From Nannocystis bainbridge (GTDB lineage: Bacteria; Myxococcota_A; Polyangia; Nannocystales; Nannocystaceae): 64,000 nucleotides of DNA. The stretch spans positions 3,904,001 to 3,968,000 of the forward strand of contig NZ_JAQNDL010000001.1 in assembly GCF_028368995.1 (NCBI RefSeq), given 5' to 3'. Position numbers and translations under genes: made by a program. The notes beneath the pieces are model-generated. The model saw only the letters and a program-made list of their open reading frames with translations. It was not told the origin of the DNA and ran no database searches. Shown in pieces: positions 715 through 63,786 of this stretch; position 1 is the first letter of the stretch; each line of letters begins with the position of its first letter.

Positions 715-1010
715 CCAGGCCTCCTCGCGCTGGCTCGCTTCCCCCAGATGTCCCGAAGGACATGTCTCGAAACAACCTCGCTTAACATGTCCCGAAGGAC
801 ATGTCGCGGAGCAACCTCGAAGGACATGTCCCGAGCGACAGCCATGATCTCGAGCCGACACCCGGCCCGGAGTCCATTCTGCTCGCTCGCTTCGAGCCGA
901 CGCGCCCTGCCCGCGCGCTGCCTGTCCCGAGAGACATCCCGCCCGCTCACGCCGAGCCCGCGCGCCTCGCCCGCCCGTTGCCTGTCCCGAGAGACATCCA
1001 GTCCGCTCAC
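711..1010 (-). other. Repeat-derived 99-codon open frame between two coupled genes (doubtful CDS)
   Basis: GTG at 1010 overlaps the upstream TGA and its own TGA (711-713) overlaps the next GTG. It is composed of 60-bp and 39-bp duplications carrying the 14-bp palindrome. Confidence 0.35.
749..840. repeat. 39-bp tandem repeat (~2.4 copies) carrying TGTCCCGAAGGACA palindromes
   Basis: TGTCCCGAAGGACA at 749 and 788; TGTCCCGAGCGACA at 827. Confidence 0.85.
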
Positions 1011-1020
1011 GCCGGCCTCC
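901..1020. repeat. 60-bp direct duplication carrying TGTCCCGAGAGACA
   Basis: 901-960 and 961-1020 are near-identical; palindromes at 923 and 983. Confidence 0.85.
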
Positions 1021-3967
1021 CGCGGGCCGCCTCGTGCACCGCGTCGCGGGCCGCCGCGCGCAGCAGGCGGGCCGTGCGTTCCGGGCCGAGGTCGAGGCGG
1101 TCGAGCAGATAGTCGAGCGCCGCGAACACGGCCGCCGCCGGGCGACTCGCCAGCGCCCCCGCGGCGTCCTGCAGCCACGGGTTGTGCGCCCCGACCACCA
1201 CCACCCGGCGCCCGCGCAGCGGTGATTTGCGCAAGCGCAGCGGCGCCAGGTCGAGGCTTCGCAGCTCCTCGCTGCCGAGCGAAGGGCTGGCCAGCGCCTG
1301 CCACGGCTCGCCGGCCGCGGTCAGGCGCGCGCTCACGGCCCTGAGCAATTCGGTCTCCTGCGCGCTCGCCAGCAGCGCGTCCCACAGATCGAGGTCGGTC
1401 GCGCCGAGCGCATCGGCGACCGCGCGGGCCTCGGCGCGCTCCTCGTCGAGCACCGCCGCGTCGCCGGCCAGCGCGTCGACGGCCAGCGGCGTGCGCCGGC
1501 GCGTGCGGTACAGCCGGCCGCGGGCCGCCAGCCGCTTGGCCTGCGCCAGCGACAGCGCCCCGCCGGCGGCCGTCGGCACCAGCGGCCGCTCGAACACCGC
1601 CGGCACCGCCTGGAACACCTCCGGCTGCTGCAGCGCCCCCTGCAGCAGCCGCGACAGATCGCCCGTCGCGTCGAGCGCCACCCGCCGGCGCGTCCGCTCG
1701 CGCAGCAGCCCCAGCAGCGCCACCGCGAACAGCGCCGCCGCCCCGATCGCCAGCCCCCACGGCGCCAGCGCGCGCGGCGGTGACATGACCCTTTCGACAT
1801 GTTCTGAAGAACCTGCCCCGACGGCCATCTCCGCCGGCCCGTCGCTCGCCGCGCCCGCCGGTTCGCCGGCAGTCTCGTCCGTCGCCCCGACCGTCTCCCA
1901 CGCCGCGTCGATCTCCCCCGGCTCGACCGGCCCCGCCGGCGTCCCGAGAGCGATCCCCGTGCTCGCGTCGGCCACCGCCCACTCGCCGTCCTGCCCGCGG
2001 TACTCCGCCCACGCGTGCAGCCACGGGTTGACCCGCCCGTTTTGGCCCACGAACCCGATCGCCAGCCGCGACTCGACCCCCGCCTCCTGCAGCAGCGCCG
2101 TCAGCAGCCCGTTCTGCACGTCGCAGTCGCCTTGCCCGATCTCGAGCGCGCGGGTGATGAAGTGCTCGCCAGCCAGCGCCCGGTGCTGCGCCGCCACCTC
2201 GGGCGCCGTGCTGTACGCCACCAGCTCGCGGGTCAGCCGCGTCAGCGCCGACACCCGCGCGGCGATCGCTCGTCCGCGCAGCGCTCGCGCCTCGCGGCGC
2301 ACGTCGGCTGGCAGCAGCCCCGACGACACCGGCCGGATCGGCCTGCCCGCCGGCGCCGGCGCGGTGCGGTAGCGCAGCGTCCCGTCCGACGGCGCCGCCA
2401 GCATCAGCAGCGCGTCGTCGTCGGCCCCGCGCTGCAGCACCACCGGCGCGCCCTCGGGGTGGTCGGCGTCGCTCAGCGCCGCGCTGCCGTCGACCACCCG
2501 GTGGCCGGTCGGCACCGGCAGCCGCATCGGCCCGGCCGGCGCGCCGAGCCGCAGCTCGACCTCCGGGCACACCTGTCCTTCGAGACATGTCGTGAAGACA
2601 TAATCACCGCCCGGCGCCGGCGCCCGCGCCTCGGCCGCGTCGCCCAGGCGGGTGAACAGCAGCGCCGCGAAGTGCAGGCGCAGGTCGGCCGGGCGGAACG
2701 TCAGCGGCGGCTCGCGGGCCCCGGCCCCGGTCAGCACGTCGACCTGCGGCCCGCGGTAGCGCGCCGCCAGGTCGGAGTAACGGGCCGGCAGGTTGGCGCT
2801 GGCCGTTTCGCCATGTTCGATGGGACCTGTCCCGTAGGACATCCCGGGCGCCGGCCGGAAGCGGGCCCACACGCGGTCGCCCCACAGCGCCCACGCCGCC
2901 CCGCCGGCCAGCGCCGCCCCCAGCAGCGCCGCCAGGAACATGCGCACCGCCAGCGAGCGGCGGACCAGCCCGCGCAGCGCCGCCCACGGCCGCTGCCACA
3001 GCGGCAGCGGCCGGATCGCGTCGAGCTGGCGGGCGATCAGCCCCTCGAGCTCCCGCTGGGCCAGGTCGACCAGCCGGCGCAGCGCCTTGTTGTCGCGCGC
3101 GTCGGAGCGCGACAGCATCAGCTCGAGCGCGTCGCTCTCGAGCAGCGCCTGCGGGGCCAGCCGCCCCGGCAGCTCGGTGAACTGGACCCGGCTGTTGTCG
3201 GTGCTGCGGCCGCCGGCCACCACGAAATCGGAGAGCGAAGCCGCCGAGCGGACCCGGAGCCCGCGCGAGAACAGCTCGACCCGCGCCGCCTCGCCGAGCC
3301 CCACCACCCCGCGCACCCGCCCGCGGCGGAAGCTCGCGCTCGGGGCCGGCAGCGCGAACGGCTTGTTGACCTTGCGGCCGTTGACCGTCACCGTCAGCGG
3401 CCGCTCCGGATCGTCGCGCGTCGCCAGGAACCGCGCGTTCTGCAGCGCCGCGTCGAACACCCGCCGCTCGAGCGCCTCGTCGACTGCCGCCCGCTCGAGC
3501 TCGATCTCCGTGCCCGGCAGGCTCGGCGGCGTCGTCTTGCGCGCCGTCGAAAGATCGCCGTCGAGCTCGAGCGCCCACGCCCCCGACCTGTCCTCCGGGT
3601 CAGGTGAGTTCGGGTCCGGGCGCCGCGCCCGCGAGCGGATCGCTATCCGCTCCGGCTCGAAGCGCAGCACCGACCAGAAGCCGACCCCGAAGCGCCCGAC
3701 CTGGTCGCGGCGCGACTCCTTGCTCGACGCGTACAGCGCGAACAAATAGCGGCGCGCGTGGGCGAAGGTCATGCCCTCGCCGTCGTCGCGGCAGCGCAGC
3801 ACCCACCGACCGCCGCGCGCCTCGGCCGTGAACTCGACCTTCGTCGCCCCGGCGTCGCGGGCGTTCTGCAGCAGCTCGCGCACGAACACCCACGGGTCGG
3901 GCCCGTAGCGGTCGGCCTCGGCGCGGGCGCGGGCCCGGAACTCGGAGCCAGGCGGCGCGCCTGTCAT
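1007..3967 (-). CDS. HSP90-like (GHKL) ATPase fused to TM segment and transglutaminase-like domain
   Basis: N-terminal boxes RELLQNARDAGA, DDGEGM, GRFGVGF, GTEI; hydrophobic helix near aa 340-362; GDCDVQN...HAWAEY...DAS (Cys-His-Asp transglutaminase-like triad); second TM helix. Confidence 0.85.
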   Translation of the reverse strand: MTGAPPGSEFRARARAEADRYGPDPWVFVRELLQNARDAGATKVEFTAEARGGRWVLRCRDDGEGMTFAHARRYLFALYASSKESRRDQVGRFGVGFWSVLRFEPERIAIRSRARRPDPNSPDPEDRSGAWALELDGDLSTARKTTPPSLPGTEIELERAAVDEALERRVFDAALQNARFLATRDDPERPLTVTVNGRKVNKPFALPAPSASFRRGRVRGVVGLGEAARVELFSRGLRVRSAASLSDFVVAGGRSTDNSRVQFTELPGRLAPQALLESDALELMLSRSDARDNKALRRLVDLAQRELEGLIARQLDAIRPLPLWQRPWAALRGLVRRSLAVRMFLAALLGAALAGGAAWALWGDRVWARFRPAPGMSYGTGPIEHGETASANLPARYSDLAARYRGPQVDVLTGAGAREPPLTFRPADLRLHFAALLFTRLGDAAEARAPAPGGDYVFTTCLEGQVCPEVELRLGAPAGPMRLPVPTGHRVVDGSAALSDADHPEGAPVVLQRGADDDALLMLAAPSDGTLRYRTAPAPAGRPIRPVSSGLLPADVRREARALRGRAIAARVSALTRLTRELVAYSTAPEVAAQHRALAGEHFITRALEIGQGDCDVQNGLLTALLQEAGVESRLAIGFVGQNGRVNPWLHAWAEYRGQDGEWAVADASTGIALGTPAGPVEPGEIDAAWETVGATDETAGEPAGAASDGPAEMAVGAGSSEHVERVMSPPRALAPWGLAIGAAALFAVALLGLLRERTRRRVALDATGDLSRLLQGALQQPEVFQAVPAVFERPLVPTAAGGALSLAQAKRLAARGRLYRTRRRTPLAVDALAGDAAVLDEERAEARAVADALGATDLDLWDALLASAQETELLRAVSARLTAAGEPWQALASPSLGSEELRSLDLAPLRLRKSPLRGRRVVVVGAHNPWLQDAAGALASRPAAAVFAALDYLLDRLDLGPERTARLLRAAARDAVHEAARGRPA

Positions 3968-7272: not shown

Positions 7273-9099
7273 ATGGCGACCCGACCCACCGCTCCGGACC
7301 AGGCAGCGAACACGCGGCGTGAACCCGTTCCGGGCGAGACGACGACCGCCCCGCATGAGCCATCCGGGCTCGCTCCGAGCAGCGCAGCGACCGCCCAGCG
7401 CCACGAGCCCGCCCCGCTCCTGCCCCAGCGCCGCGAGAGCCTCGCGCGCGCCGTCGTCGACCTCGGCTACACGCCGGGCCGCGCCGACATGCGCGACGTC
7501 GTCGAGCTGCTCGGCGACGACGAGGACCTCGCCGTCCACGTCGAGCGCGCCCTCCTGCGGGCCGGCGCCGCCGCGGCTCCGGCCCTCCTGCGCCGCCTGC
7601 CCGGGGCAGAGCCGCCGCTGCGCCCGCGCCTCGTCCGCGTGCTCGGCCGCCTGCCTGCCGACCCCGCCATTGACATGTCCTTAAAAACATGTCTCGAAGA
7701 CCATGACCCGAAGACCAGGCGCAACGCCATCGGCGCGCTCGGCAAGCGCGGCGGCGAGGGCGTCGCCACCGCCCTGCTGACTTGCGCCCGCGCCGAGACC
7801 TCGCTGCCGCACCTGCGCAGCCTGGTCGAGGCGCTCGGCAAGGTCGGCGACGCCGACGCCCTCGCCTGGCTCGACCGCCTCGAGGCCGACGACCCCGAGC
7901 TGCAGCGCCTGACCGCGCGCGCCCGCCTGATGCTCGGCCGCAGCCTCGGCCGCGGCGAGGTCGACTCCGCGATCGACCTCGAAGCCGTCGCCCCGGCCCC
8001 GCGCCCGCTGGTGCTCGGCTGCCGCCCCGGCCTCGAGACGCTGCTCGCCGAGGCCCTCGGCGCCGCCTTCGCCCCCCGCGTCGTCGCCCCCGGCCGCGTC
8101 ACCGCGACCCTGCGCGGCCCGCTGCGCGAGCTGCTCGCCGTGCGCCTGTGGACCGAGGTCGGCCTGCCGCTGCCGCCCCTGTCCGCCGGGACAGATCTGT
8201 CCGCGGCCGTGGCGGCGCTGCTGACCGGCCCCGAGGCGCGCCTGGTCTTTGGGACATATACCAAGGGACAGGTCCGCTATCGGCTCGCCTGGGCCCGCGG
8301 CGGCCACCGCCGCGCCCTCGTGTGGCAGGTCGCCGCCGCCGCCGCCGCGCTGTGGCCGGAGCTGGTCAACGACCCACGCGAGACGACCTGGGAGGTCGTG
8401 GTCGACGACGCCGGTCTGCTCGTCCGCGCCGAGCTGCGCCCGCGCCGGTGGAGCGCCGAACGCCCGCCCGCCGACCTCACCAGCGCCAGCGCCGACGACC
8501 TCGCCAGCGACGACAAGCCCGCGCTCGAGACCACCGACCCGCGGTTCGCCTACCGCAGCGGCGACGTCCCCGCCGCCTCGCACCCGACGATCGCCGCCGC
8601 CCTCGCGCAGCTCGCCGAGGTCCGCCCCGACGACGTCGTCTGGGACCCGTTCGTCGGCTCCGGCCTCGAGCTGTGCGAGCGCGGCCTGCTCGGCCCCGCC
8701 ACGACCCTGCTCGGCACCGACCTCGACCCACGCGCCCTCGCCGTCGCCGCCACCAACCTGCGCAACGCCGGCCTGCGCGCCGACCTCCGCCAGGCCGACG
8801 CGACCACCCACCGACCGCCGGGCGTCACCCTCGTCATCACCAACCCGCCGATGGGCCGCCGCGTCCATCGCGGCGACGTCGGCCCGCTGCTGACGGCCTT
8901 CATCGCCAACGCGGCCGCGACCCTGGCCCCCGGCGGCCGCCTGGCGTGGATCTCGCCGATCCCCCGGACCACCGACCCGGCAGCCGAGGCGGCCGGCCTG
9001 GTCCTGCGCCGCTCGCTGAACCTCGACATGGGCGGCTTCACGGCCCAGCTCCAGCTGTGGGACAAGCCGTCGCGCCTGGGCCGCCGCGCCCGCGCGTGA
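7273..9099 (+). CDS. HEAT-repeat + THUMP-like/class I SAM-dependent (RNA amino-)methyltransferase
   Basis: HEAT repeats (DPKTRRNAIGALGKRG, LVEALGKVGD); WDPFVGSG motif I, GTDLD, and ITNPPMG motif IV. Confidence 0.8.
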   Translation: MATRPTAPDQAANTRREPVPGETTTAPHEPSGLAPSSAATAQRHEPAPLLPQRRESLARAVVDLGYTPGRADMRDVVELLGDDEDLAVHVERALLRAGAAAAPALLRRLPGAEPPLRPRLVRVLGRLPADPAIDMSLKTCLEDHDPKTRRNAIGALGKRGGEGVATALLTCARAETSLPHLRSLVEALGKVGDADALAWLDRLEADDPELQRLTARARLMLGRSLGRGEVDSAIDLEAVAPAPRPLVLGCRPGLETLLAEALGAAFAPRVVAPGRVTATLRGPLRELLAVRLWTEVGLPLPPLSAGTDLSAAVAALLTGPEARLVFGTYTKGQVRYRLAWARGGHRRALVWQVAAAAAALWPELVNDPRETTWEVVVDDAGLLVRAELRPRRWSAERPPADLTSASADDLASDDKPALETTDPRFAYRSGDVPAASHPTIAAALAQLAEVRPDDVVWDPFVGSGLELCERGLLGPATTLLGTDLDPRALAVAATNLRNAGLRADLRQADATTHRPPGVTLVITNPPMGRRVHRGDVGPLLTAFIANAAATLAPGGRLAWISPIPRTTDPAAEAAGLVLRRSLNLDMGGFTAQLQLWDKPSRLGRRARA

Positions 9100-9162: not shown

Positions 9163-9235
9163 TGCCCAGGGACGGAATCGAACCGCCGACACGGGGATTT
9201 TCAGTCCCCTGCTCTACCGACTGAGCTACCTGGGC
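9163..9235 (-). tRNA. tRNA-Phe(GAA)
   Basis: Reverse complement GCCCAGGTAGCTCAGTCGGTAGAGCAGGGGACTGAAAATCCCCGTGTCGGCGGTTCGATTCCGTCCCTGGGCA forms a cloverleaf with anticodon GAA; CCA not encoded. Confidence 0.97.
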
Positions 9236-20578: not shown

Positions 20579-20747
20579 TGGCCCTTCGGACCTGTCCGAA
20601 GGGCCATTTGCATTTAAGCCGGCCGAACTCGGGTCGCGAGGTCATCACGCCGGCTCGCCCGGGCCGTGGCCCCGATGGCCAGGACATGTCCTCCGGGACA
20701 TGTCCATGTGAATATGTTCATCTGGACATGTCTATCGGGACATGTCC
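20579..20747. repeat. Hairpin pair plus phased array of 14-bp palindromes between convergent genes
   Basis: TGGCCCTTCGGACC|TGTCCGAAGGGCCA at 20579-20606; TGTCCTCCGGGACA|TGTCCATGTGAATA|TGTTCATCTGGACA|TGTCTATCGGGACA at 20687-20742. Confidence 0.85.
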
Positions 20748-29141: not shown

Positions 29142-31144
29142 CGCGACCTCCGCGAAGCTGGCGCCGGGGACATGTCCCTTCGGCCATCTAGCGCCGAATT
29201 CACGCTCTTGCGGGCCCCTGCAGCAGATGGCGCCGGGGACATGTTCTTCGGGTCAGCCGCCTTGCCGCTGGTCGGCGGCGGCGGCAGCAGCGGCGGCTTG
29301 CCGCGCTCGTGGGTGGCGCGCTCGACCTCGAGGTTGCGCAGCAGCAGCGACGGGCTGACGGCCGACACCGGCACATCGCCCGACTCCGCGCCGCACATCC
29401 CGTTGAAGATCCCCGGCGTGTCGCCGGTCGCCGCGATCGTCTCGAACGCCGCCAGCGGCGTCCCGACGATGTCGACCCCGCGGACCAGCTCGTCGGGGCG
29501 GCCGTCGGCCCAGATCCGGTAGACCAGCAGCGGCATCACCTTGAACGCCTGCGGGCCCGAGCGCTCGGTCGTGGTGTAGCCGCCCTGGATGTCGGAGAAC
29601 CACAGCCCGTACGGCTTGCCCTGCCGCTTGACCTCGTCGATGAGCGCGCGGCGGAGCTCCTTGTCGGGGATCGTCTTGCGGCTGGTGACGATCAGGTTGC
29701 CCTGGCGGGCCACCGCCTGGTACCCGCGCTCGCGCCGGCCGTGGCCGTTGCTCTTCGTGAACGGCAGCACCGGCGAGCGACCGAGCAGGAACGTGCGCAG
29801 CTTGCCGCGCTCGACCAGCACCACCCGCTCGGCCGGCACCCCCTCGTCGTCGACGTGGTAGTGGCCCGACAGCGGCACGCCGCCGAGCGTCTCGGCCGTG
29901 GGGTCGTCGACCATGTCCAAAAAGACAGGCAGCACCCGCTTGCCGATCATGTTGGCGAAGGTCTGACCCTCGAGGTCGTCCTTCTGCCGGTGGCCCTCGA
30001 GGCGGTGGCCGAAGATCTCGTGGAAGAACACCCCCGCCGCGCGGCCGGCCAGCACCGCCGGCCCGTTGTAGGGCTCGGCCAGCGGCGCCACCCGCAGCGC
30101 CAGCACCTCGTCGCGCAGGCGCTTGGCGGTGGCCACCAGCACCGACTGCGCCGGCATCTGCTCCGGGTCCATCGCCTCGAAGCTCTCGAAGCGGTCGAGC
30201 GTCATGCCGTCGTCGGCCTGGGCCTTGGCCTGCAGCATCAGGCGCAGGCGCACCTGCGAGCCCTGGATCCGCGTGTTCTCGCTGTTGACGTAGGCGCGGT
30301 TGTCGACCCACGCCAGGAACACCGCCTGGCTCTCGAGCACGTGCGGGTCGTCGGCCAGCGCCGCCGAGATCTCGCGCAGCCGCGGCTCCCACAGCTTGCC
30401 CAGCGCGGCGAGGTCGAGGCTGACCGGCGGCTCGGCGTGGATGTTCGGCTTCTCCTCGCTGAAGTCCGGCGACGGCGGCTTGTCCTCGGTCTGGCTCTTC
30501 AGCTGCTCGGCGCTCTCGGCCGCGCTGAAGGCCGCCAGCGCGTCCTTGTACTGCGCCTCGGTGTACTGCCAGAGCGCCTGCGACAGCGCCAGCGGATCGC
30601 TCTGCACCGACACGAACATGCCGCTGCCGAGCCCGTTGCCCGGCCCGTAGTTGGCGTCGCCCGGGTGGCTGTTGTCGAGCTGGCGCGTGCCGACGCGGAC
30701 GTCGACGTCGACCGTGCGGTCGGTGTCGGTCCGGTTGCGCACGATCTGCCCGTTCTGCGCCTCGAGCCACAGGTGGTCGCGGGCGATCAGGTCGTAGGCG
30801 AGGAAGTACGCCGGCACCTCCGCGCCCTCGCCCTGCAGCTGGGTCAGGTTCTTGAGTGTCTCTTGGGCCAGGAAATCAAGGACAGGTTCGGGCAGGCCCA
30901 CCGGGGCCCGCTTGCGCGTGATCGCGTGCTCGCGCGCCGCATCGCCGCCGACCTCCCACACGTCCGCCGCCGGCGACGTGGTCGCCTTGCGCGGCTGGCA
31001 GCTCACCAGCGTCAGCGCCCCGACCAGCGCGGCCAACCACGGGCGCGCCGTCAGGGCACCCGCGCTCGCGGCGTCTCGGCTCGCGCGCGAGAGCGCCGGG
31101 GTCGCCGCGGGTCTGGCCGACATCGGCCGCATGATAACCGACAT
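29138..31144 (-). CDS. tldD: TldD-family metalloprotease, probable lipoprotein
   Basis: GVFFHEIFGHRLEG zinc motif, DDEGV, SNGHGR, CGAESG.VPVS; lipobox-like LVSC. Confidence 0.9.
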   Translation of the reverse strand: MSVIMRPMSARPAATPALSRASRDAASAGALTARPWLAALVGALTLVSCQPRKATTSPAADVWEVGGDAAREHAITRKRAPVGLPEPVLDFLAQETLKNLTQLQGEGAEVPAYFLAYDLIARDHLWLEAQNGQIVRNRTDTDRTVDVDVRVGTRQLDNSHPGDANYGPGNGLGSGMFVSVQSDPLALSQALWQYTEAQYKDALAAFSAAESAEQLKSQTEDKPPSPDFSEEKPNIHAEPPVSLDLAALGKLWEPRLREISAALADDPHVLESQAVFLAWVDNRAYVNSENTRIQGSQVRLRLMLQAKAQADDGMTLDRFESFEAMDPEQMPAQSVLVATAKRLRDEVLALRVAPLAEPYNGPAVLAGRAAGVFFHEIFGHRLEGHRQKDDLEGQTFANMIGKRVLPVFLDMVDDPTAETLGGVPLSGHYHVDDEGVPAERVVLVERGKLRTFLLGRSPVLPFTKSNGHGRRERGYQAVARQGNLIVTSRKTIPDKELRRALIDEVKRQGKPYGLWFSDIQGGYTTTERSGPQAFKVMPLLVYRIWADGRPDELVRGVDIVGTPLAAFETIAATGDTPGIFNGMCGAESGDVPVSAVSPSLLLRNLEVERATHERGKPPLLPPPPTSGKAADPKNMSPAPSAAGARKSVNSALDGRRDMSPAPASRRSR

Positions 31145-32583: not shown

Positions 32584-32656
32584 GGGGCAGTAGCTCAGCT
32601 GGGAGAGCGGTGCGTTCGCAATGCACAGGTCAGGGGTTCGATCCCCCTCTGCTCCA
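32584..32656 (+). tRNA. tRNA-Ala(CGC)
   Basis: GGGGCAGTAGCTCAGCTGGGAGAGCGGTGCGTTCGCAATGCACAGGTCAGGGGTTCGATCCCCCTCTGCTCCA; G3:U70 Ala determinant; anticodon CGC. Confidence 0.97.
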
Positions 32657-34366: not shown

Positions 34367-37975
<3,609 letters not shown>

Positions 37976-39661: not shown

Positions 39662-40702
39662 TCACCGCATCAGCGTCATCTCGCTGCCGGGCAGCGCCAC
39701 GCCCTCGCGGAACCCGAGCCCGTGATAGAACGACTGCGCGTCGCGGGTGCGCAGGAGGACGCGCCGACAGCCGCGGACCCGCGGGTGATCGAGCAACATC
39801 TTTGTAAGAGCCTTGCCGAGCCCGCGGCCGCGCCACGACTCCGCCACCGCGATGTCGAGCAAGAAGGCGCAGCGGGCCCCGTCGGCGATCGCTCGCCCGG
39901 TGGCGACGAGCGCCCCCGCCTGGTCGCGCGCGCCCACCCACGCCGACGACGAGAGCTGCGCGCGCACGATCCTGTCCTTCGGGACATCCACGTTCCAGTA
40001 TTGCCCCCCGAGCAGCAGGGCCACCTCCGCGACGTCGGCCGGCCCGAGCGCGCAGTGGAGCCGCGCCCCCGCGGGCGCCTGCAGGAACTCGGGCGTCGCC
40101 ACGTTCGGGTTGGCTGCCCGCACCAAATCGATCGCCCGCGGATCCCCAGCCTCGCCGCGCGCCCACAGGAATCGCAGCACCTTGCCCAGGTCGTCGGCGC
40201 TGCGGTTCTGGCCCAGCTTGGCCTTGCCGTCGACCTGCGTCAGCGGCAGGCCGACCACCGCGATCCCCCGCACCGGCCCGCGGTAGCGCGGATCGTCGGC
40301 GGTGATCGGCGCATGGCCGCCCTCCGGCTGATGCTTCTCCATCAACGCTTGCAGCACCCGGGCCTTGAGCGCCGGGTCCTCCACGCCCACCAGCGTCCCG
40401 TGCACCTGGGCGCTGCGGTAATACGTGGTCGCCGGGCAGGCCCGCTCCGGGTCGAACACGTGGCTCGGGATCGTCGCCACCAGCTCGTCCGCGGCGATCA
40501 CCGCCGCGCGCCCCACCGCCTCCGACTTCTCGCCGACGGGCGCCGCGTGGAAGTACAGCCAATCGTCGACCACCACCGCGTGCAGCGTGCGCAGCACCGG
40601 CTGCCCCTGCTCGCCGATCCCCGCCAGGCGCACCACCGGCGCCGCCGCCAGCAGCGCGACCGCCTCCTCGCGCGCCATCCCGAAGAACTCCTGCTTGCGC
40701 AT
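39662..40702 (-). CDS. Pyridoxamine-5'-phosphate-oxidase-like flavin-binding domain fused to GNAT acetyltransferase
   Basis: LYFHAA..GEK, ATTYYRSAQVHG, GKAKLGQN; C-terminal LLDIAVAESWRGRGLG...AQSFY..LGF. Confidence 0.85.
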   Translation of the reverse strand: MRKQEFFGMAREEAVALLAAAPVVRLAGIGEQGQPVLRTLHAVVVDDWLYFHAAPVGEKSEAVGRAAVIAADELVATIPSHVFDPERACPATTYYRSAQVHGTLVGVEDPALKARVLQALMEKHQPEGGHAPITADDPRYRGPVRGIAVVGLPLTQVDGKAKLGQNRSADDLGKVLRFLWARGEAGDPRAIDLVRAANPNVATPEFLQAPAGARLHCALGPADVAEVALLLGGQYWNVDVPKDRIVRAQLSSSAWVGARDQAGALVATGRAIADGARCAFLLDIAVAESWRGRGLGKALTKMLLDHPRVRGCRRVLLRTRDAQSFYHGLGFREGVALPGSEMTLMR

Positions 40703-42344: not shown

Positions 42345-43049
42345 ATGACTCGCCTCCTGCTCGTCAGCAACTCCACGCTCCACGGCTCCGGCTACCTCGA
42401 TCACTGCGCCGAGCAGATCGGGCAGTTCCTCGGCCGCGGCGTCACGCGCGTCCTGTTCATCCCGTTCGCGCTGCACGACCGCGACGCCTACGCCGCCCAG
42501 GCGCGGGCCCGCTTCGCCGAGTTCGGCTACCAGCTCGACAGCCTGCACGAGGCCGCCGACCCACGCGCCGCCGTGCAGACCGCCCAGGCCGTGTTCACCG
42601 GCGGCGGCAACACCTTCCGGCTGCTGCGCCAGCTCTATGCGCTCGACGTGCTCGCGCCCCTGCGCGAACGTGTCCTTTCGGACATGCCGTACATCGGCTC
42701 CTCGGCCGGCTCGAACATCGCCGGCCTGACGATCGGCACCACCAACGACATGCCGATCGTCGAACCGCCGAGCTTCCGCGCCCTCGCCCTCGTGCCGTTC
42801 AACCTCAACCCGCACTACCTCGATCCGGAACCCGGGTCGACGCACATGGGCGAGACCCGCGAGAAGCGGATCGAGCAGTTCCACGAGGAGAACCCGCAGC
42901 CGGTGGTGGGCCTGCGCGAGGGCTCGCTGCTGCGGCGCGAGGGTCCGCGGCTCAGCCTGCTCGGCGTCACCGGCGCCCGGATCTTCCGCCGCGATCAGAA
43001 GCCCACGGAGGTGCCACCAGGCGCCGACCTGAGCGATCTGCTCGCCTGA
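42345..43049 (+). CDS. pepE: Dipeptidase E (peptidase S51)
   Basis: LLVSNS, GGGNTFRLL, GSSAGSN, TTNDMPIV, NPHY, HMGETRE.RI. Confidence 0.93.
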   Translation: MTRLLLVSNSTLHGSGYLDHCAEQIGQFLGRGVTRVLFIPFALHDRDAYAAQARARFAEFGYQLDSLHEAADPRAAVQTAQAVFTGGGNTFRLLRQLYALDVLAPLRERVLSDMPYIGSSAGSNIAGLTIGTTNDMPIVEPPSFRALALVPFNLNPHYLDPEPGSTHMGETREKRIEQFHEENPQPVVGLREGSLLRREGPRLSLLGVTGARIFRRDQKPTEVPPGADLSDLLA

Positions 43050-43874: not shown

Positions 43875-44567
43875 ATGGCTTCGCTCGGCTCGCGCATCTC
43901 GGTTCTCCTTCTCGCGCTGCTCGGATTCACGGCCCCTGCCGCGGCGTCGATCCCCGTCACCACCGGCGAGTCCGACAGCGACACCTTCCCGGAGACCAGC
44001 GGTGAGCCGCCGCAGCTCATCACCATCGTCCAGCCCACCTCGGGCGACGTGTTCAGCGGCACGCCGGACGCCACCATTCAGTTGATCATCGAGTTCGAGA
44101 CCCTCGACGGCGCCGACATCAAGCTCGACGCGCGCGCCCGCGAGGGCGGCGACGGCCCGTGGACCACCGTGCGCGAGGACGCCTGCCCGGCCGGGCCCTC
44201 GCCCTGCATGCTCGAGATCTCCCTGCCCCCGGCCCTGTACATGCTGTACGCCATCGGCGAGGGCCCCGGCGGCGCCAGCGAGATCGACGTCATCTCCGTC
44301 GAGGTCGTCGAGGCCGCCGCCACCGACACTGACACCACCGACGGCGCGACCGGAGAGACCGAAGCCGCGCCGACCGGCTCCTCGACCGACGACCCCACTG
44401 GCGCCGACTCGACCGGCAGCACCACCGGCGACGGCGCTTCCGCGTCCGGCGGCGACTCGGCCGACGGTGAAAAGGGCTGCGCCTGCAACAGCGGCACGGG
44501 CGGGCCCGACCTGCTCGGCCTCACCCTCGCCCTCCTCTTCATCCCCCGCCTCCGCCGCCGCCGCTGA
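43875..44567 (+). CDS. Secreted Ig-like protein with MYXO-CTERM-type sorting signal
   Basis: Signal peptide; Thr/Asp/Gly linker; C-terminal GCAC..., hydrophobic stretch, RRRR. Confidence 0.8.
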   Translation: MASLGSRISVLLLALLGFTAPAAASIPVTTGESDSDTFPETSGEPPQLITIVQPTSGDVFSGTPDATIQLIIEFETLDGADIKLDARAREGGDGPWTTVREDACPAGPSPCMLEISLPPALYMLYAIGEGPGGASEIDVISVEVVEAAATDTDTTDGATGETEAAPTGSSTDDPTGADSTGSTTGDGASASGGDSADGEKGCACNSGTGGPDLLGLTLALLFIPRLRRRR

Positions 44568-44570
44568 GCA

Positions 44571-44755
44571 CCGAGACCGGCCGGCTCCCGCCGCTCGGCT
44601 CGAGCCCGCCCGAGACCGCCCGAGCTCCCGCTGAGCTCGAGCGCCCGAGACCGACCGGGCTCCCGCCGCTGGGCTCGAGCGCCCGAGACCGCCCGAGCTC
44701 CCGCTGAGCTCGAGCGCCCGAGACCGACCAACCTCCCGCCGCTGAGCGCGAGCCC
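44571..44755. repeat. Alternating 35/38-39-bp tandem mosaic repeat (5 units)
   Basis: CCGAGACCG anchors at 44571, 44610, 44645, 44683 and 44718; the units at 44610 and 44683 are identical. Confidence 0.8.
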
Positions 44756-52691: not shown

Positions 52692-52876
52692 CCTGTCCCT
52701 CGGGACAGTCGATGGACTTCGCCTGTTCCGCTGACCTGTCCCTCGAGACAGTCGCTGGACTTCGCCTGGTCCACTGACCTGTCCCACGGGACAGTCTCTG
52801 GACTTCACCTCGTCCGTTGACCTGTCCCTCGGGACAGGCAGGGAGATCTCCCCCGCGGGACCTGTCCTCGCGGACA
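52684..52876. repeat. 43-bp tandem repeat (3.6 copies), each with a near-perfect 14-bp palindrome, plus a fifth site
   Basis: TCCGCTGACCTGTCCCTCGGGACAGTCGATGGACTTCGCCTGT-like units at 52684, 52727, 52770 and 52813; TGTCCTCGCGGACA at 52863. Confidence 0.9.
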
Positions 52877-54774: not shown

Positions 54775-55716
54775 ATGAGGCCCGGCTCCCGGCTCCTGGT
54801 GCTGCTCGCGGCGACGATCGGCGTCGTCTCGGGCTGCCTGGTCGAGCTCGACCCGCCGGCCGACTGCGGCGACGGCTTCATCGACGTGCTCGCCCAGGAG
54901 GACTGCGAGCCGTCCCTGCCCGACAGCTACGCCGACCGCTGCGCCGAGCTCGACCGCGTCGCCAGCCCGGCCGCCTGCGACCCCAAGACCTGCCGCTTCG
55001 CCGCCAGCGGCTGCCTCGCCTGCGGCAACGGCGTGCTCGACCCCGGCGAGGAGTGTGACCCCGAGGACATGTCCGAACCGACATGTCCCGGAGAAGGGGT
55101 AGCGACCTGCCGCGACAACTGCACCGTCGACCGCTCGGCCTGCTCGGCCTGCGGCAACGGCGTGCTCGACGTCGACGAGGAATGCGACTTCGCCCTCGAC
55201 CTCGACGACCTGGCCCTGACGATCGCCTGCGCGGAGCTCGACTCGCCGGGCGGCATCTCCCGCCGCTACGGCTCGGGCGAGTCGACCCGCTGCACCAGCA
55301 AGTGCGAGTGGGACCGCTCGCGCTGCTCCTACTGCCAGAACGACAAGCTCGAGGGCGACGAGGTCGACGGCCTCTACGTCGACTTCGAGCAGACCATCCA
55401 GCCGCCGCCCGAGGTCTGCGACAACCAGCACGCCGACCCCGAGGCCCTGGTGGCTCATTGCCAGTCGGCCTGCGGCAGCAGCTACCGCGTCGAGTGCCAG
55501 TTCTCCTGCGCCACCGACTGTCTGGAGTTCGAGAACGTGGGCGTGCCGACCGAAGAGCTCGGCTGCTGCACCGCCCGCAAAGAGACCTGCCCCTACGACC
55601 CGCAGACCGGCGAACTGATGCCCGGCCGCAGCCACTGCTGCCGCAAGCTCACCCATCCGGACGAGAATCCCTGCGAGCCGACCGGCTTCCCAAACCTCAT
55701 CTACACGTGCCGCTGA
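54775..55716 (+). CDS. Cys-rich myxobacterial lipoprotein
   Basis: Lipobox VSGC; CGDG and CGNG...EECD repeats. Confidence 0.8.
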   Translation: MRPGSRLLVLLAATIGVVSGCLVELDPPADCGDGFIDVLAQEDCEPSLPDSYADRCAELDRVASPAACDPKTCRFAASGCLACGNGVLDPGEECDPEDMSEPTCPGEGVATCRDNCTVDRSACSACGNGVLDVDEECDFALDLDDLALTIACAELDSPGGISRRYGSGESTRCTSKCEWDRSRCSYCQNDKLEGDEVDGLYVDFEQTIQPPPEVCDNQHADPEALVAHCQSACGSSYRVECQFSCATDCLEFENVGVPTEELGCCTARKETCPYDPQTGELMPGRSHCCRKLTHPDENPCEPTGFPNLIYTCR

Positions 55717-56014: not shown

Positions 56015-56992
56015 ATGCGCCCGCCGTACGCGCTGCTCGTCGCTGCTGCCGTCGCTGCCGGGGTGGGCTGCGTCGTCCCGCTCGACCCGGTGCGCGACTG
56101 CGGCGACGGTTTCATCGACAAGCTCGCCGGTGAGGACTGCGAGCCCTCGCTGGTCGCCGGCATGCTCGGCTTCTGCGGCGCCGACGAGGTCCCCGGCCCG
56201 GGCGCGTGCGACCGCGAGACCTGCACCTTCGACCGCGACGCCTGCACCCGCTGCGGCAACGGCCTGCTCGATCCCGGCGAGGCATGTGACCCAAGGGACA
56301 TGTCCCAACCGGCATGTCCGCTCGCAGGCCTGGCCCGCTGCCGCAGCGACTGCACCATCGACGTCTCGAGCTGCCCGCGCACCTGCGGCGACGGCGTCGT
56401 CGACCTCGACCTCGAGGAGTGCGACTGGGGTCGGCCCGACGACCTCACCGACAAGGGCGCCCCGCTCAGCGTCGAATGCGTCGACCTCCCCGCCCCGACC
56501 TACCGCGCCTACGGCGACGGCACCTCGACCCAGTGCACCGCCGACTGCACATGGGACCGCTCCGACTGCACCTACTGCGGCAACGCGCGCCTCGAGAGCC
56601 TCGCCGTCATCGACAAGTACGACCTCCACCTCGACGACGCCGGGAGGCACGACTTCGCGCCCGAAGTCTGCGACGCCGGGGTGGCGCCCGATCTGCAAGC
56701 GCTGAGCGCGTTCTGTCAGGACCGCTGCGACGCCGGCGGCCTCATGATCGCGTGCACCTACGCATGCAGCGCCACCTGTGAGAGCTTCCTCGAGCCCGAG
56801 GACGGCGGCCCCGACAACGGCTGCTGCACCCCGAGGGGCGCCAGTTGCCCTTACTACAAGGACGGCGAGCTGTTCAAGCTGTTCAACAAGCGCAAGCCGT
56901 GTTGCGGCCTGGAGGGCATCGAGTTCGACGCGGACCCGTGCGTCGTGAATGTGGAGCTCGAGGGTACGGTGGGCTTGCGCATCTGCCCTTGA
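56015..56992 (+). CDS. Cys-rich myxobacterial lipoprotein, tandem paralogue of 54775..55716
   Basis: Lipobox GVGC; colinear motifs DCGDGFID.LA.EDCEPSL, C.WDRS.C.YC, PEVCD, GCCT.R...CPY. Confidence 0.8.
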   Translation: MRPPYALLVAAAVAAGVGCVVPLDPVRDCGDGFIDKLAGEDCEPSLVAGMLGFCGADEVPGPGACDRETCTFDRDACTRCGNGLLDPGEACDPRDMSQPACPLAGLARCRSDCTIDVSSCPRTCGDGVVDLDLEECDWGRPDDLTDKGAPLSVECVDLPAPTYRAYGDGTSTQCTADCTWDRSDCTYCGNARLESLAVIDKYDLHLDDAGRHDFAPEVCDAGVAPDLQALSAFCQDRCDAGGLMIACTYACSATCESFLEPEDGGPDNGCCTPRGASCPYYKDGELFKLFNKRKPCCGLEGIEFDADPCVVNVELEGTVGLRICP

Positions 56993-57028: not shown

Positions 57029-58057
57029 ATGTCCGAGCCTCGCAAGTCTCTCGTCACCGGCGGCTGCGGCTTCCTCGGCCGCTTCCTCGTCGACGCCCTC
57101 GTCCGCCGCGGTGACAAGGTCACCGTCCTCGACCACAAGGTCGATCGCTGGCGCGACGACGTCCAGTTCATCGCCGGCGACATCTGCGACCCCGAGGTCG
57201 TCGCCCGCGCCTGCGCCGGCCAGGACGTCGTGTTCCACAACGCCTCGCTGGTCCACACCAAGCACAGCCGCGTCGAGCAGGTCCGCGCCGTCAACATCGA
57301 CGGCACCCGCAACGTCCTCGAAGCCTGTCGCAAGGGACAGGTGCCGAAGCTCGTCTACGTCAGCTCCGCCAGCGTCGTCTACGAGGGGCGCGACATCGAG
57401 CGCGGCGACGAGAACCTGCCCTACGCCCGCGAGTGGCTCGCGCCCTACGCCGAGACCAAGCGGATCGCCGAGGAGGAGGTCCTGAACGCCAACGGTCAGG
57501 GCGGCCTGCTCACCTGCGCCATCCGCCCGCACATGATCTTCGGGCCCGGCGACACCCGCCTGCTGCCGGCGATCCTCGCCCGCGCCAGGGCCGGCAACCT
57601 CAAGTTCACCGTCGGCGGCGGCGACCGCCTCAACGACTTCACCTATGTCACCAACATCGTCGACGCCCTGCTGGCCGCCGACGAGCGCCTGGTGCCCGGC
57701 TCACCGGTCGGCGGTCGCGCCTACTTCATCACCAACGGCGAGCCGATGAACTTCTGGGACTTCGTGCGCCGCGTCCTCGTCGGCCTCGGCTACCCGACCC
57801 CGCGGTTCCGCATCCCCTACGCCGTCGCCTACGCCGCCGCTGCCGCCCGCGAGACCTTCGACACCATCGTCCGCGGCGGCACCCTGCACGCCGAGGAGGG
57901 CCTGTCGCGGTTCTCGATCCGCTACATCTGCACCCACCACTACTTCGACTGCGCGCGCGCGGCCGCCGACCTCGGCTACAAGCCCCAGGTCTCGATGCTC
58001 GAGGGCATCCGCCGCACCGTCGAGTATTTTCGCGCCCAGGGCATCGCCGCCGCCTGA
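57029..58057 (+). CDS. 3-beta-hydroxysteroid dehydrogenase/NSDHL-like extended SDR
   Basis: VTGGCGFLG, VFHNAS, VYVSSASVV, YAETK, AIRPH.IFGPGD, DFTYV.N, GRAYFITNGEP..FWDF. Confidence 0.85.
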   Translation: MSEPRKSLVTGGCGFLGRFLVDALVRRGDKVTVLDHKVDRWRDDVQFIAGDICDPEVVARACAGQDVVFHNASLVHTKHSRVEQVRAVNIDGTRNVLEACRKGQVPKLVYVSSASVVYEGRDIERGDENLPYAREWLAPYAETKRIAEEEVLNANGQGGLLTCAIRPHMIFGPGDTRLLPAILARARAGNLKFTVGGGDRLNDFTYVTNIVDALLAADERLVPGSPVGGRAYFITNGEPMNFWDFVRRVLVGLGYPTPRFRIPYAVAYAAAAARETFDTIVRGGTLHAEEGLSRFSIRYICTHHYFDCARAAADLGYKPQVSMLEGIRRTVEYFRAQGIAAA

Positions 58058-62136: not shown

Positions 62137-63714
62137 GTGACTTCCGACTTCGACTACGACTTCATCGTCGTCGGCTCCGGCTTCGGCGGCAGCGTCTCCG
62201 GCCTCCGGCTGACCGAGAAGGGCTACCGCGTCCTCATGCTCGAGAAGGGCGGCGAGCTCGGGCCGGCCGAGTTTCCGAAGACCAACTGGAACCTCAAGCG
62301 GTGGCTGTGGATGCCGAAGCTCGGCTGGCGCGGCCTGTTTCAGATGACCTTCTTCCGCCACGTCACCGTGCTCTCGGGCGTCGGCGTCGGCGGCGGCTCG
62401 CTGGTCTACGCCAACACGCTACCTGTCCCGAAGCACAGCTTCTTCGAGTCGCCCTCGTGGGCTCGCCTCGCCGACTGGGAGAACGAGCTGAAGCCGCACT
62501 ACGAGACCGCGCTGCGGATGCTCGGCGCGGCGCCGAACCCTGCGGTCACCCCGGTCGACCGGGTCATGCGGGGCGTCGCTGCCGACATGGGCAAGACCGT
62601 CGAGCCGACCCATGTCGCGGTCTATTTCGGCGAGCCGGGCAAGACCGTGGCCGACCCGTACTTCGGCGGCAGCGGCCCCGAGCGGACCGGCTGCATTTAC
62701 TGCGGCGGCTGCATGCTCGGCTGTCGCTTCGGCAGCAAGAACACCCTCGACAAGAACTACCTCTTCTTCGCGCGCAAGCGCGGCCTCGAGCTGCAGGCCG
62801 ACACCGAGGTCACCGCCGTGCGCGCCCTGCCGGGCGGTGGTTATCGCGTCGAGGCGCGCAGCGGCACCGGCCTGCTCGGCCGCCAGGCCCGCAGCTTCAC
62901 CGCCCGCAACGTCGTGCTCGCCGGCGGCGTGCTCGGCACCGTCGACCTGCTGCTGCGCATGAAGCAGGACCCCGACGGCCTGCCCAAGTTGTCCGACCGC
63001 CTCGGCGAGAACGTGCGCACCAACTCCGAGTCGCTCATCGGCATCGTCGGCGCCCAGCGTCAGCACGACCTCTCGCGCGGCGTCGCCATCGGCTCGATCA
63101 TCCAGCTCGACGAGCACTCGCACGTCGAGCCCGTGCGCTACTCCGCCGGCTCCGGCTTCTGGCGCCTGCTGCTCGCCCCGCACGTCGCCGGCGAGAAGGC
63201 CCTGGTCCGCCTGTCGCGGTTCGCCGGCGCCTTCCTCCGCCACCCGATCAAGTTCGCCCGCGCCTTGATGGTCCCCGACCTCGCCAAGTACTCGATCATC
63301 CTCCTCTACATGAAGACCGCCGAGGGCACCTTGCGCCTCCGCCTCGGCGCCACCGGCCTCGCCACCGACCTCTCCTCCGGCAAGCCGCCCACCGCATCGA
63401 TCCCCGAGGCCACCGACATCGCCCGTCGCGTCGCCGACAAGATCCAGGGCTACTCGATGTCGCTCGTCACCGAGACCCTGTTCAATATTCCGACCACCGC
63501 CCACATCCTCGGCGGCTGCACCATGGGCGACTCGGCCGAGACCGGCGTCATCGACCATCAGCACCGCGCCTTTGGTTACGACGGCCTCTACGTCATCGAC
63601 GGCTCGGCCGTCTCGGCCAACCCTGGCGTCAACCCCTCGCTCACGATCACCGCCCTCGCCGAGCGGGCCATGAGCCGGATCCCCGCCAACGTCGAGGTCG
63701 CCGCCTCGGCCTGA
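62137..63714 (+). CDS. GMC oxidoreductase, cholesterol-oxidase (ChoD)-like
   Basis: VVGSGFGGSV, GVGVGGGSLVYAN, C..CG.CM.GC..G.KNTLDKNYL, TAHILGGC, N.GVNPSLTITALAERAM. Confidence 0.9.
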   Translation: MTSDFDYDFIVVGSGFGGSVSGLRLTEKGYRVLMLEKGGELGPAEFPKTNWNLKRWLWMPKLGWRGLFQMTFFRHVTVLSGVGVGGGSLVYANTLPVPKHSFFESPSWARLADWENELKPHYETALRMLGAAPNPAVTPVDRVMRGVAADMGKTVEPTHVAVYFGEPGKTVADPYFGGSGPERTGCIYCGGCMLGCRFGSKNTLDKNYLFFARKRGLELQADTEVTAVRALPGGGYRVEARSGTGLLGRQARSFTARNVVLAGGVLGTVDLLLRMKQDPDGLPKLSDRLGENVRTNSESLIGIVGAQRQHDLSRGVAIGSIIQLDEHSHVEPVRYSAGSGFWRLLLAPHVAGEKALVRLSRFAGAFLRHPIKFARALMVPDLAKYSIILLYMKTAEGTLRLRLGATGLATDLSSGKPPTASIPEATDIARRVADKIQGYSMSLVTETLFNIPTTAHILGGCTMGDSAETGVIDHQHRAFGYDGLYVIDGSAVSANPGVNPSLTITALAERAMSRIPANVEVAASA

Positions 63715-63720
63715 CCCGCC

Positions 63721-63786
63721 TGTCCTTCGGGACAGCTTCTCTCGGCCGCGCCGCCTGACCCCGCGAGGGACCTGTCCCTCGGGACA
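63721..63786. repeat. Two consensus 14-bp palindromes downstream of the GMC gene
   Basis: TGTCCTTCGGGACA at 63721; TGTCCCTCGGGACA at 63773. Confidence 0.8.

Follow-up and report, generated by a model that had tools for sequence, protein, structure and literature searches.

Why does a short palindrome break the codon usage of genes that otherwise almost always end their codons in G or C? This question is raised by a 64-kb stretch of a Nannocystis genome (G000:C1:3904001-3968000, hereafter the window), in which a gene encoding a HEAT-repeat methyltransferase carries several units of a palindromic DNA motif. An initial annotation of the window had proposed that the motif is selected or actively generated at the DNA level, and had taken this as its strongest argument for a function. 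We report here that the motif, a gapped palindrome of the form TGTCC-N4-GGACA, is subject within genes to a sequence-specific force that acts at the DNA level. The explanation that we tentatively favour is that it may be a lineage-specific recognition sequence of a trans-acting factor, most likely a protein dimer on double-stranded DNA, with its main site of action past stop codons. The source genome (G000) comprises 11.05 Mb in five contigs with 71.5% GC, and its closest relatives are Nannocystis exedens DSM 71, N. pusilla, N. punicea, and Nannocystis sp. RBIL2.

Abundance and Register of the Palindrome

Over the whole genome, TGTCC-N4-GGACA was found in 1,987 exact copies and, when up to one mismatch was allowed, in 6,245 copies versus 164 for the reversed control, a density of one exact or near-exact motif per 1.8 kb. 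The 10-mer palindrome GGACATGTCC, which is formed where 14-mers abut, was present in 956 exact copies versus about 9.5 expected from base composition. In the window, 14 exact 14-mers were detected for 0.07 expected, together with 28 copies of GGACATGTCC with up to one mismatch for 1.75 expected. A short palindrome is thus over-represented genome-wide by at least the 15-fold that characterizes the HIP1 element of cyanobacteria, and chance is excluded as the source of its abundance.

The geometry of the motif was also nearly fixed. A spacer of four nucleotides accounted for 1,987 copies, those of three and five nucleotides for 16 and 5, respectively, and half-sites of neighboring units abutted directly in 956 cases versus 11 with one intervening base. 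Unit-to-unit spacings of 14, 28, 42, and 56 bp were observed in 602, 214, 146, and 43 cases, and a spacing of 13 bp in a single case. The 146 cases at 42 bp, which correspond to three units and four helical turns, exceed the level of a simple decay. Arrays seeded on the 10-mer numbered 3,245 and totaled 7,344 units, with one to nine units per array, or about 0.9% of the genome by our own arithmetic from the printed counts. In a divergent congener (G009), 80 kb contained 24 14-mers versus one 10-mer, and as this genome is rich in 14-mers and poor in 10-mers, the 14-mer was taken as the basic unit. The 10-mer palindrome thus had to give way to the gapped 14-mer as the more basic element.

The Motif in the HEAT-Methyltransferase Gene

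The gene that raised the question (7273..9099, + strand) is an open reading frame (ORF) of 608 aa with Pfam matches to HEAT_2 (residues 103-175, a region that covers the motif peptide at residues 134-145) and to the UPF0020 methyltransferase family (residues 427-572). Thirty-six of its 608 codons end in A/T, corresponding to a G+C fraction at third codon positions (GC3) of 0.941, and 13 of these 36 are found within three motif footprints that together span about 30 codons, i.e., about 5% of the gene.

The first footprint (7671..7708) consists of three phased 10-bp units with a 14-bp period and encodes the peptide D-M-S-L-K-T-C-L-E-D-H-D in a HEAT helix. The codons that had attracted attention, GAC ATG TCC TTA AAA ACA TGT CTC GAA GAC CAT GAC, were confirmed in frame at 7672-7707, as were the three phased units, with CATG centers at 7674, 7688, and 7702, 14 bp apart. 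This array was common to five relatives (G005, G003, G010, G001, and G007). Seventy-four of 80 orthologous loci from the Polyangia spanned the array site, and they differed in net length by −1 to +10 codons, with one difference of +48 and 22 of zero; in direction, the other loci were equal or longer, with a minimum of −1. Nannocystis genomes devoid of the array encode the segment as CTC CTG ACC TGC CTC GAC GAC CCG GAC versus TTA AAA ACA TGT CTC GAA GAC CAT GAC here, and GC3 over 22 codons at the array was 0.68-0.73 in the bearers versus 0.86-0.96 in the other Nannocystis genomes. From these alignments, the three-unit array is not an insertion; it arose in exact register without any change in length.

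The second footprint (8180..8202) is an exact TGTCC-N4-GGACA (8180-8193) followed by an extra TGTCC half-site. The exact element showed no mismatch in five of five close relatives, and was absent, at equal length, in G009. The third (8252..8275) contains two degenerate units encoding F-G-T-Y-T-K-G-Q-V, and the codons TTT GGG ACA TAT ACC AAG GGA CAG proposed for this region were confirmed at 8248-8271. These units were found genus-wide, including in G009, and a genome of another genus (G013) uses G/C-ending codons there at equal length. Finally, 10 A/T-ending codons occur among roughly the first 70 of the ORF (7273-7488), and alignment to relatives begins only at residue 34-37. The 608-aa ORF may in fact start farther downstream, our own gene caller having chosen 7489.

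Codon Bias Inside Genes

Genes were taken from our own crude codon-likelihood caller, which delineated 7,846 genes covering 81% of the genome, so that "non-called" DNA may hide genes. GC3 dropped from 0.946 in background codons to 0.716 in the stem, 0.700 in the spacer, and 0.826 in the 12-nt flanks, and the value predicted from the amino acids was about 0.945 in every class; the spacer bases are not specified by the search pattern. The lowered GC3 that the initial annotation had anticipated inside the motif footprints was thus observed against an amino acid prediction that stayed at the background level. Likewise, where orthologues lack the motif, the same residues were encoded by G/C-ending codons in tldD, in the HEAT gene, and in metH.

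The called coding sequences (CDS) contained 717 exact motifs versus 10.8 expected from the protein sequence and the synonymous usage of the genome (about 65-fold), and the interior of 3,534 high-scoring genes contained 434 exact motifs versus 6.76 expected. The three reading frames were used 409, 247, and 61 times, the most-used frames being those that need the fewest rare codons, and all three were enriched, from 40- to 900-fold.

Origin and Conservation of the Copies in Genes

To follow the origin of the gene copies, the source genome was compared with G009 over 338 shared genes holding 40 exact CDS copies. Twenty-six of the 40 copies aligned gap-free: five were shared, one differed by one mismatch, and 20 had at least two mismatches and were counted as absent. 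The remaining copies fell at indels (5/40) or could not be aligned (9/40). The control windows comprised 7,912 aligned, 309 at indels, and 182 unaligned, and the indel or unaligned class therefore represented 14/40 CDS copies versus 491/8403 controls. Amino acids differed at 67 of 146 motif codons (46%) versus 12,263 of 39,560 control codons (31%). These comparisons show that gene copies arise mostly in place by substitution and favor variable protein segments, and point mutation in place at tolerant protein positions, as known for uptake sequences, was indeed found. Extra residues relative to element-less orthologues, which would betray in-frame insertion of a palindrome, were found neither at the HEAT array nor at the 26 gap-free copies of the G009 set. 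In-frame insertion of 42 bp (3 × 14) was also rejected because CDS arrays of two to six units numbered 373, 96, 36, 7, and 7, with no excess of three or six units.

Conservation was assessed with two to five close relatives and the divergent congener. Over the roughly 340 kb and 310 kb that could be aligned to two relatives, an A/T third position within a motif was kept in 79/100 and 89/104 cases versus 1920/4749 (40%) and 1517/4442 (34%) outside motifs (Fisher p = 8e-15 and 1e-26). The 400 kb of G005 used for this purpose came from beside its match to the window; this segment showed no synteny with the flank of the window and was compared with the other part of G000 to which it mapped. In the window itself, the comparison with five relatives gave 92/120 (77%) in motifs versus 1416/3758 (38%) outside, these relatives being kin and their counts non-independent. 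The stems of exact CDS copies differed at 3/210 and 12/190 positions, and the spacers at 18/84 and 24/76 (p = 2e-8 and 3e-7). As is the case for HIP1, the motif is therefore present in ORFs and conserved there beyond codon expectation. Gap-free origin, G/C-ending codons in orthologues, and conserved A/T third positions all support the earlier proposal that the motif is maintained or generated as DNA sequence. Between genes, a copy was kept in 102 of 133 orthologous intergenic regions where G000 has one, and was present in 33 of 361 where it has none; the unit number and the length of these regions vary.

Genomic Context and Distribution

Exact copies were most dense in convergent intergenic regions (1.53 per kb), followed by tandem (0.61) and divergent (0.20) intergenic regions and by CDS (0.081), and their density over the genome was maximal 0-20 nt past stop codons. 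Among convergent, tandem, and divergent regions, 56%, 26%, and 16%, respectively, held at least one copy with up to one mismatch. The same pattern was observed in G009, with 2.47, 0.445, 0.043, and 0.075 copies per kb in convergent, tandem, divergent, and coding regions, respectively. Copies within called genes represented 725 of the 1,987 exact and 2,406 of the 6,245 near-exact elements (37-39%), and the strictly extragenic location typical of repetitive extragenic palindromic (REP) sequences and REPINs was therefore not found. CDS copies were evenly distributed along genes, so that wrongly called gene ends do not account for them.

Element density increased with local GC content (Spearman 0.47, binned genome), from 0.133 per kb in bins below 68% GC to 0.709 per kb at 72-74% GC, a 5-fold difference. 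Two island-like regions, G000:C1:1150001-1170000 (65.5-69.4% GC) and G000:C2:1850001-1870000, were almost motif-free; among them, they code for large proteins of the DEAD-helicase, AAA_22, NACHT-pentapeptide, helicase-exonuclease, and kinase-WD40 types. Intergenic 14-mers often sat within composite tandem repeats of 38, 39, 43, or 60 bp (window 748-834, 893-1014, and 52684-52837, and beside one reverse-transcriptase gene elsewhere in the genome), a pattern that suggests slippage of longer units as the way in which arrays grow.

A 19-mer spanning one and a half units was present in all 10 Nannocystis genomes searched, and in zero or one copy in each of 30 genomes searched from 30 other genera. 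Sequencing runs that contain the window are metagenomes, and RNA-labelled runs contained no more than 0.10 of its sampled words. The restriction to the genus that this 19-mer implied was, however, rejected, as two further genera of the family likewise showed enrichment of the 14-mer. Counts of the 14-mer versus its control were 161 versus 1 in G013, 87 versus 10 in G011, and 959 versus 4 in G009, and no enrichment was found in G024 (6 versus 2) or G015 (5 versus 2). Thirteen of the 22 sites inspected in G013 were located in CDS. Enrichment beyond Nannocystis indicates that the specificity is older than the genus, and that the copy number expanded in Nannocystis.

A Candidate Reader and Its Rivals

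Copies that originate in place, and not by descent from each other, require a trans-acting reader of this specificity, whether that reader selects the sites, binds them, or biases repair or uptake. We infer that this reader is a protein, that it reads the duplex, and that its role is as follows. Abutting dimers would account for the strict 14-bp register. The main site of action would be the DNA just past stop codons, above all between convergent genes, where arrays of two to nine units could help to end transcripts, act as a roadblock, or handle supercoils or nucleoid structure. The gene copies would belong to the same system, having been made by point substitutions, either synonymous against codon bias or changing amino acids in tolerant segments, and would then be held by the same force.

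Several features favor a dimer on duplex DNA. Variation is almost absent from the outer TG and CA, which are separated by one turn of the helix, whereas the inner stem bases vary freely. Given the strict spacing, a rigid dimer is expected rather than a hairpin loop. Variants compatible with G.U pairing were found on the sense versus the antisense strand in 233 versus 206 cases downstream of genes, and in 272 versus 328 cases in CDS; a variant spectrum that is strand-symmetric in this way argues against reading at the RNA level, and the signal looks like DNA. The fixed N4, the 14-bp register, the TG-N10-CA invariants, and the strand symmetry thus all favor a duplex dimer, and the same specificity across genera fits a conserved protein. 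Selection at the RNA level was rejected on the grounds that G.U strand asymmetry was absent and that the only Rfam matches in the window were two tRNA genes, at 9163-9235 (− strand) and 32584-32656 (+ strand).

On the other hand, several points weigh against a dimeric reader. No reader protein was identified in this analysis, and selection on sites in such numbers, in the thousands, would impose a heavy load. Aligned non-coding copies were kept no better than the non-coding DNA around them, with A/T positions retained at 0.746 versus 0.778 in G005 and at 0.795 versus 0.744 in G003, and non-coding copies turn over by indels. That density is lowest in atypical low-GC islands would suit a slow accumulation by drive equally well. 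Compensated double variants were enriched across the spacer, with odds ratios of about 2.4, 4.0, 2.1, and 1.2 by our own arithmetic, and sense-strand loops lean to UNCG-like tetraloops downstream of genes, both of which suit a hairpin; across abutting halves, compensated doubles were not enriched for three of the four variants. The crudeness of the gene calls and the small number of relatives compared, which are closely related, also count against it.

A serious rival to selection for function is molecular drive without any function of the single site, in which a biased process favors alleles that match the motif and copies accumulate wherever they are tolerated. The bias could come from motif-dependent uptake and recombination, as for the uptake signal sequences (USS) and DNA uptake sequences (DUS), or from motif-directed short-patch mismatch repair, as proposed for HIP1. 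Drive accommodates the point substitution in place from partial matches, with flanks homologous up to the motif edge, the poorly conserved segments in which CDS copies are found (67/146 codons; 14/40 at indels or unaligned), the frame use of 409/247/61 that favors the frames costing the fewest rare codons, the minimum of density in low-GC islands, the wide differences in abundance between genera, and non-coding copies that are not specially conserved. The same features are described for uptake sequences in PMC2817400, and the idea of a repair ratchet for HIP1 is cited in PMC5861425. Nevertheless, a bias for single sites would hardly yield the strict 14-bp register or an array of three units assembled by substitution. 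Known uptake sequences are asymmetric and are not known to be phased or to form tandem arrays, the uptake route would presuppose competence and biased uptake in Nannocystis, and the 7.6-fold excess of convergent over divergent intergenic copies needs an added assumption. According to the argument of Xu et al. (PMC5861425), site conservation favors selection over replenishment. We regard drive as possible though rather unlikely, and the dimeric reader as our best guess. What holds of the proposal that the motif is "selected or actively generated" is thus the force at the DNA level; it does not amount to functional proof, since drive yields the same signature. A further, distinctly doubtful proposal is an active sequence-directed "writer" that would convert near-matches to TGTCC-N4-GGACA in the 14-bp register by short-patch repair or templated conversion. 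If true, it would explain how a three-unit array replaced a HEAT helix at constant length and how synonymous codons were rewritten against a GC3 of 0.95, and it would represent a directed mutational process with a defined target, genetically accessible in a culturable bacterium.

Two other explanations give the palindrome itself a different nature. The half-sites could pair on single strands, either RNA or single-stranded DNA, into a hairpin with a 5-10-bp stem and a 4-nt loop, acting as a terminator without a U-tract or as a REP-like stabilizer of 3' ends, the gene copies being by-products or pause sites. Besides the compensated doubles across the spacer and not across abutting halves, this explanation draws on the position of elements 0-25 nt past stop codons with a preference for convergent pairs, on the single strand of 20682-20747, which folds as one nested hairpin (−43.5 kcal/mol, z = −6.2), on a mild sense-strand excess of CTCG, TTCG, and TCCG loops, i.e., C(UNCG)G-type tetraloops, and on the occurrence of intergenic copies within 38-60-bp composite repeats. 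We consider it unlikely, because G.U strand asymmetry is absent, the loop length is fixed at 4, CDS copies fold weakly (z = −0.6 to −2.4), and a specific stem with a near-invariant TG/CA would still demand a sequence-specific reader. The T/U run of an intrinsic terminator was not found either, the frequency of T in the logo being at most 0.26 at each position from +17 to +37. As for a miniature mobile element inserting copies, in frame when within genes, after the manner of REPIN/RAYT systems, miniature inverted-repeat transposable elements, or Rickettsia palindromic elements, it would be in keeping with a high copy number, a palindromic structure, a mostly extragenic location at 3' ends, the differences between species in indels or unit number of some intergenic arrays, and the 5/40 CDS copies at indels versus G009. 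However, 26/40 CDS copies aligned gap-free, the HEAT array showed no insertion across the 74 spanning orthologues, spacers differ among copies, CDS arrays show no excess of three or six units, and the two-unit pattern was found in only one viral contig, so that this explanation appears highly improbable and, for the CDS copies, largely refuted by the alignments. Mobilization by RAYT/IS200 was rejected because the Y1 transposase family PF01797 had no match in G000 (an assembly 90% complete by marker genes), the control search being positive in 6 of 14 genomes; a phage origin was rejected on account of the single viral contig. A retron or reverse-transcriptase source was likewise rejected, as the five RVT_1 matches had no special link to the motif, and the repeats beside one RVT_1 gene were an ordinary convergent-intergenic array located downstream, not an upstream msr/msd region. 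Three of the RVT_1 matches, located in ORFs of 636-666 aa (G000:C1:3394425, C2:1697652, and C3:907422), scored identically and look like a multi-copy retroelement.

Other Sites in the Window

The sites reported by the initial annotation in conserved enzymes were recovered when compared with TGTCC-N4-GGACA, those at 39973 and 42671 being exact, those at 29914, 57326, and 62424 having one mismatch, and that at 35405, the weakest, having two. The host genes were confirmed by Pfam as PmbA/TldD, MetH, GNAT, Peptidase_S51, 3Beta_HSD, and GMC.

The element in the PmbA/TldD domain (29914..29927, one mismatch) lies in the peptide LPVFLDMV, which is identical in G009 and G006 but uses the codons CCT GTC TTT TTG here versus CCG GTG TTC CTC there. 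Two further units were located in the last 35 or so codons of this tldD-like ORF (29168-29246). Matches from other genera stop near residue 590-600 of its 632 residues, and relatives show small non-triplet indels in the tail, which may thus represent a recent read-through into a former intergenic array.

The element in metH (35405..35418, two mismatches) falls in an inter-domain linker encoded by TGT CCT TTG in the subclade and by GTC/ACC CCG CTC in other Nannocystis. The Pro-Leu pair is CCT TTG here versus CCG CTC there, and adjoins the Val/Thr-to-Cys change. A near-match at 35596, which the initial annotation had not cited, was rejected as evidence because it is imposed by a conserved D-M-T/S peptide with all-G/C codons. 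The metH gene of G007 (G007:C2:8003458-8007061) matches in two pieces (residues 1-343 and 338-1202) that lie in different frames, the result of either a frameshift or a misassembly close to the motif. A/T-ending codons were present in G013, the genome with 161 copies, at both the metH (TGT CCC TTA GAC) and the tldD (CCT GGC TTT TTG GAC ATG) sites, and the intervening Nannocystis genomes G002, G006, G008, and G009 have G/C-ending codons there. The G013 sites could be ancient sites lost in between, or result from transfer or from convergent gain at proto-sites.

The element in the Pyridox_ox_2/GNAT gene (39973..39986) is exact, with no mismatch in five of five relatives. That in the Peptidase_S51 (pepE-like) gene (42671..42684) is also exact; divergent Nannocystis have CGC GTC GCG GCT GGC at equal length, and the motif replaced codons of the GCG GCT GGC type. 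Elements with one mismatch were located in the 3Beta_HSD (NSDHL-like) gene (57326..57339; two mismatches in relatives) and in the GMC oxidoreductase gene (62424..62437), and two exact elements lie directly past the stop codon of the GMC gene (63721..63786). For the GNAT, NSDHL-like, and GMC sites, orthologues were compared within the five close relatives.

Other genes of the window also carry phased units. Three units, including an exact 14-mer at 2828-2841, were found at 2809..2846 in the gene at 1007-3967 (− strand); the corresponding segment in G009 is of equal length, unrelated in sequence, and variable. Two or three phased units were present at 55056..55088 and at 56287..56319, each in a gene without a Pfam family (54799-55716 and 56063-56992, respectively), and in the latter the cores are kept and the spacers differ among relatives.

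Between genes, elements at 744..840 belong to a 39-bp composite tandem repeat, with three to five elements in the orthologous region of five of five relatives, and a five-unit array (20682..20747) occupies a whole convergent intergenic region. Five elements in a 43-bp tandem repeat (52694..52876) are also convergent intergenic, and three to six elements were found in the orthologous region of five of five relatives. A 35/73-bp tandem repeat of 2.5-4.9 copies at 44571-44753, just past a gene ending at 44567, is unrelated to the motif.

Comparison with Known Systems and Significance

The closest parallels are offered by HIP1 and by uptake sequences. In PMC5861425, HIP1 (GCGATCGC) of cyanobacteria is presented as a short palindrome, 15- to 300-fold over-represented, within and between genes. 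HIP1 sites are described there as conserved between genomes, with codons better kept inside the motif than outside (Xu, Lawrence and Durand); the function of HIP1 is given as not known, and selection or a repair ratchet is discussed. Like HIP1, the Nannocystis motif is over-represented, conserved in ORFs, and surrounded by codons less well kept than those inside it. Unlike HIP1, it belongs to another phylum and has another sequence, its unit is gapped (5-N4-5) instead of an 8-mer, and its copies are arranged in tandem arrays with a strict 14-bp period and concentrated past stop codons and between convergent genes. The Nannocystis motif is also A/T-richer than its 72% GC host, hence the plain clash with codon bias. 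What was found is thus TGTCC-N4-GGACA in Nannocystis, and not GCGATCGC or a one-step variant of it in cyanobacteria.

Uptake sequences are asymmetric 9-12-mers that are not known to form phased tandem arrays, and their inverted pairs serve as terminators. Findlay and Redfield (PMC2817400) report that their copies number in the hundreds to thousands, of which between one and two thirds lie in ORFs, in frames that fit codon preference. They are also said there to prefer poorly conserved genes and residues, and to be missing from genes without homologues in relatives. The Nannocystis motif resembles the USS of Pasteurellaceae and the DUS of Neisseriaceae in its copy number, its share in ORFs, its frame fit, and its tolerant positions, but USS and DUS are tied to demonstrated competence and uptake bias.

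REP sequences and REPINs, as described in PMC3116915 and PMC3337134, are palindromic, present in many copies at gene 3' ends, and often organized in hairpin-forming doublets. REPINs are extragenic and copied by RAYTs, whereas 37-39% of the Nannocystis copies are intragenic, the latter arise by substitution, and no Y1 transposase was found in the source genome. Rickettsia palindromic elements are palindromic repeats found in protein genes as insertions of about 100-150 bp that add residues, whereas the Nannocystis gene copies are mostly without length change. A 14-bp palindrome of the 5-N4-5 type with conserved outer bases resembles the sites of FNR-type regulators (FNR/CRP class), and tandem palindromic units resemble the met-boxes of MetJ. 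Operators of dimeric repressors, however, number tens to hundreds and are located in promoters, while the Nannocystis motif is present in thousands of copies past stop codons and in genes. No description of this repeat was found among the papers listed in the literature searches, subscription journals being largely outside their reach. The system is of the HIP1 or uptake-sequence kind, and is set apart by its sequence, gapped architecture, phased arrays, and concentration at 3' ends.

HIP1 and the USS/DUS systems are long-standing puzzles, and for HIP1 neither function nor origin is known after decades. The Nannocystis motif is an independent case in another phylum. Its A/T-richness in a 72% GC host makes the gain and loss of gene copies readable directly from alignments, and the strict 5-N4-5 geometry, with its 14-bp register, suggests a reader that can be defined. 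A dosage series across genomes (5-6, 87, 161, and about 1,000-2,000 copies) permits comparative tests, and cultured type strains exist. In Nannocystis itself, the copies distort the statistics of codon usage and horizontal transfer, seed problems of assembly and alignment, and mark the 3' ends of genes.

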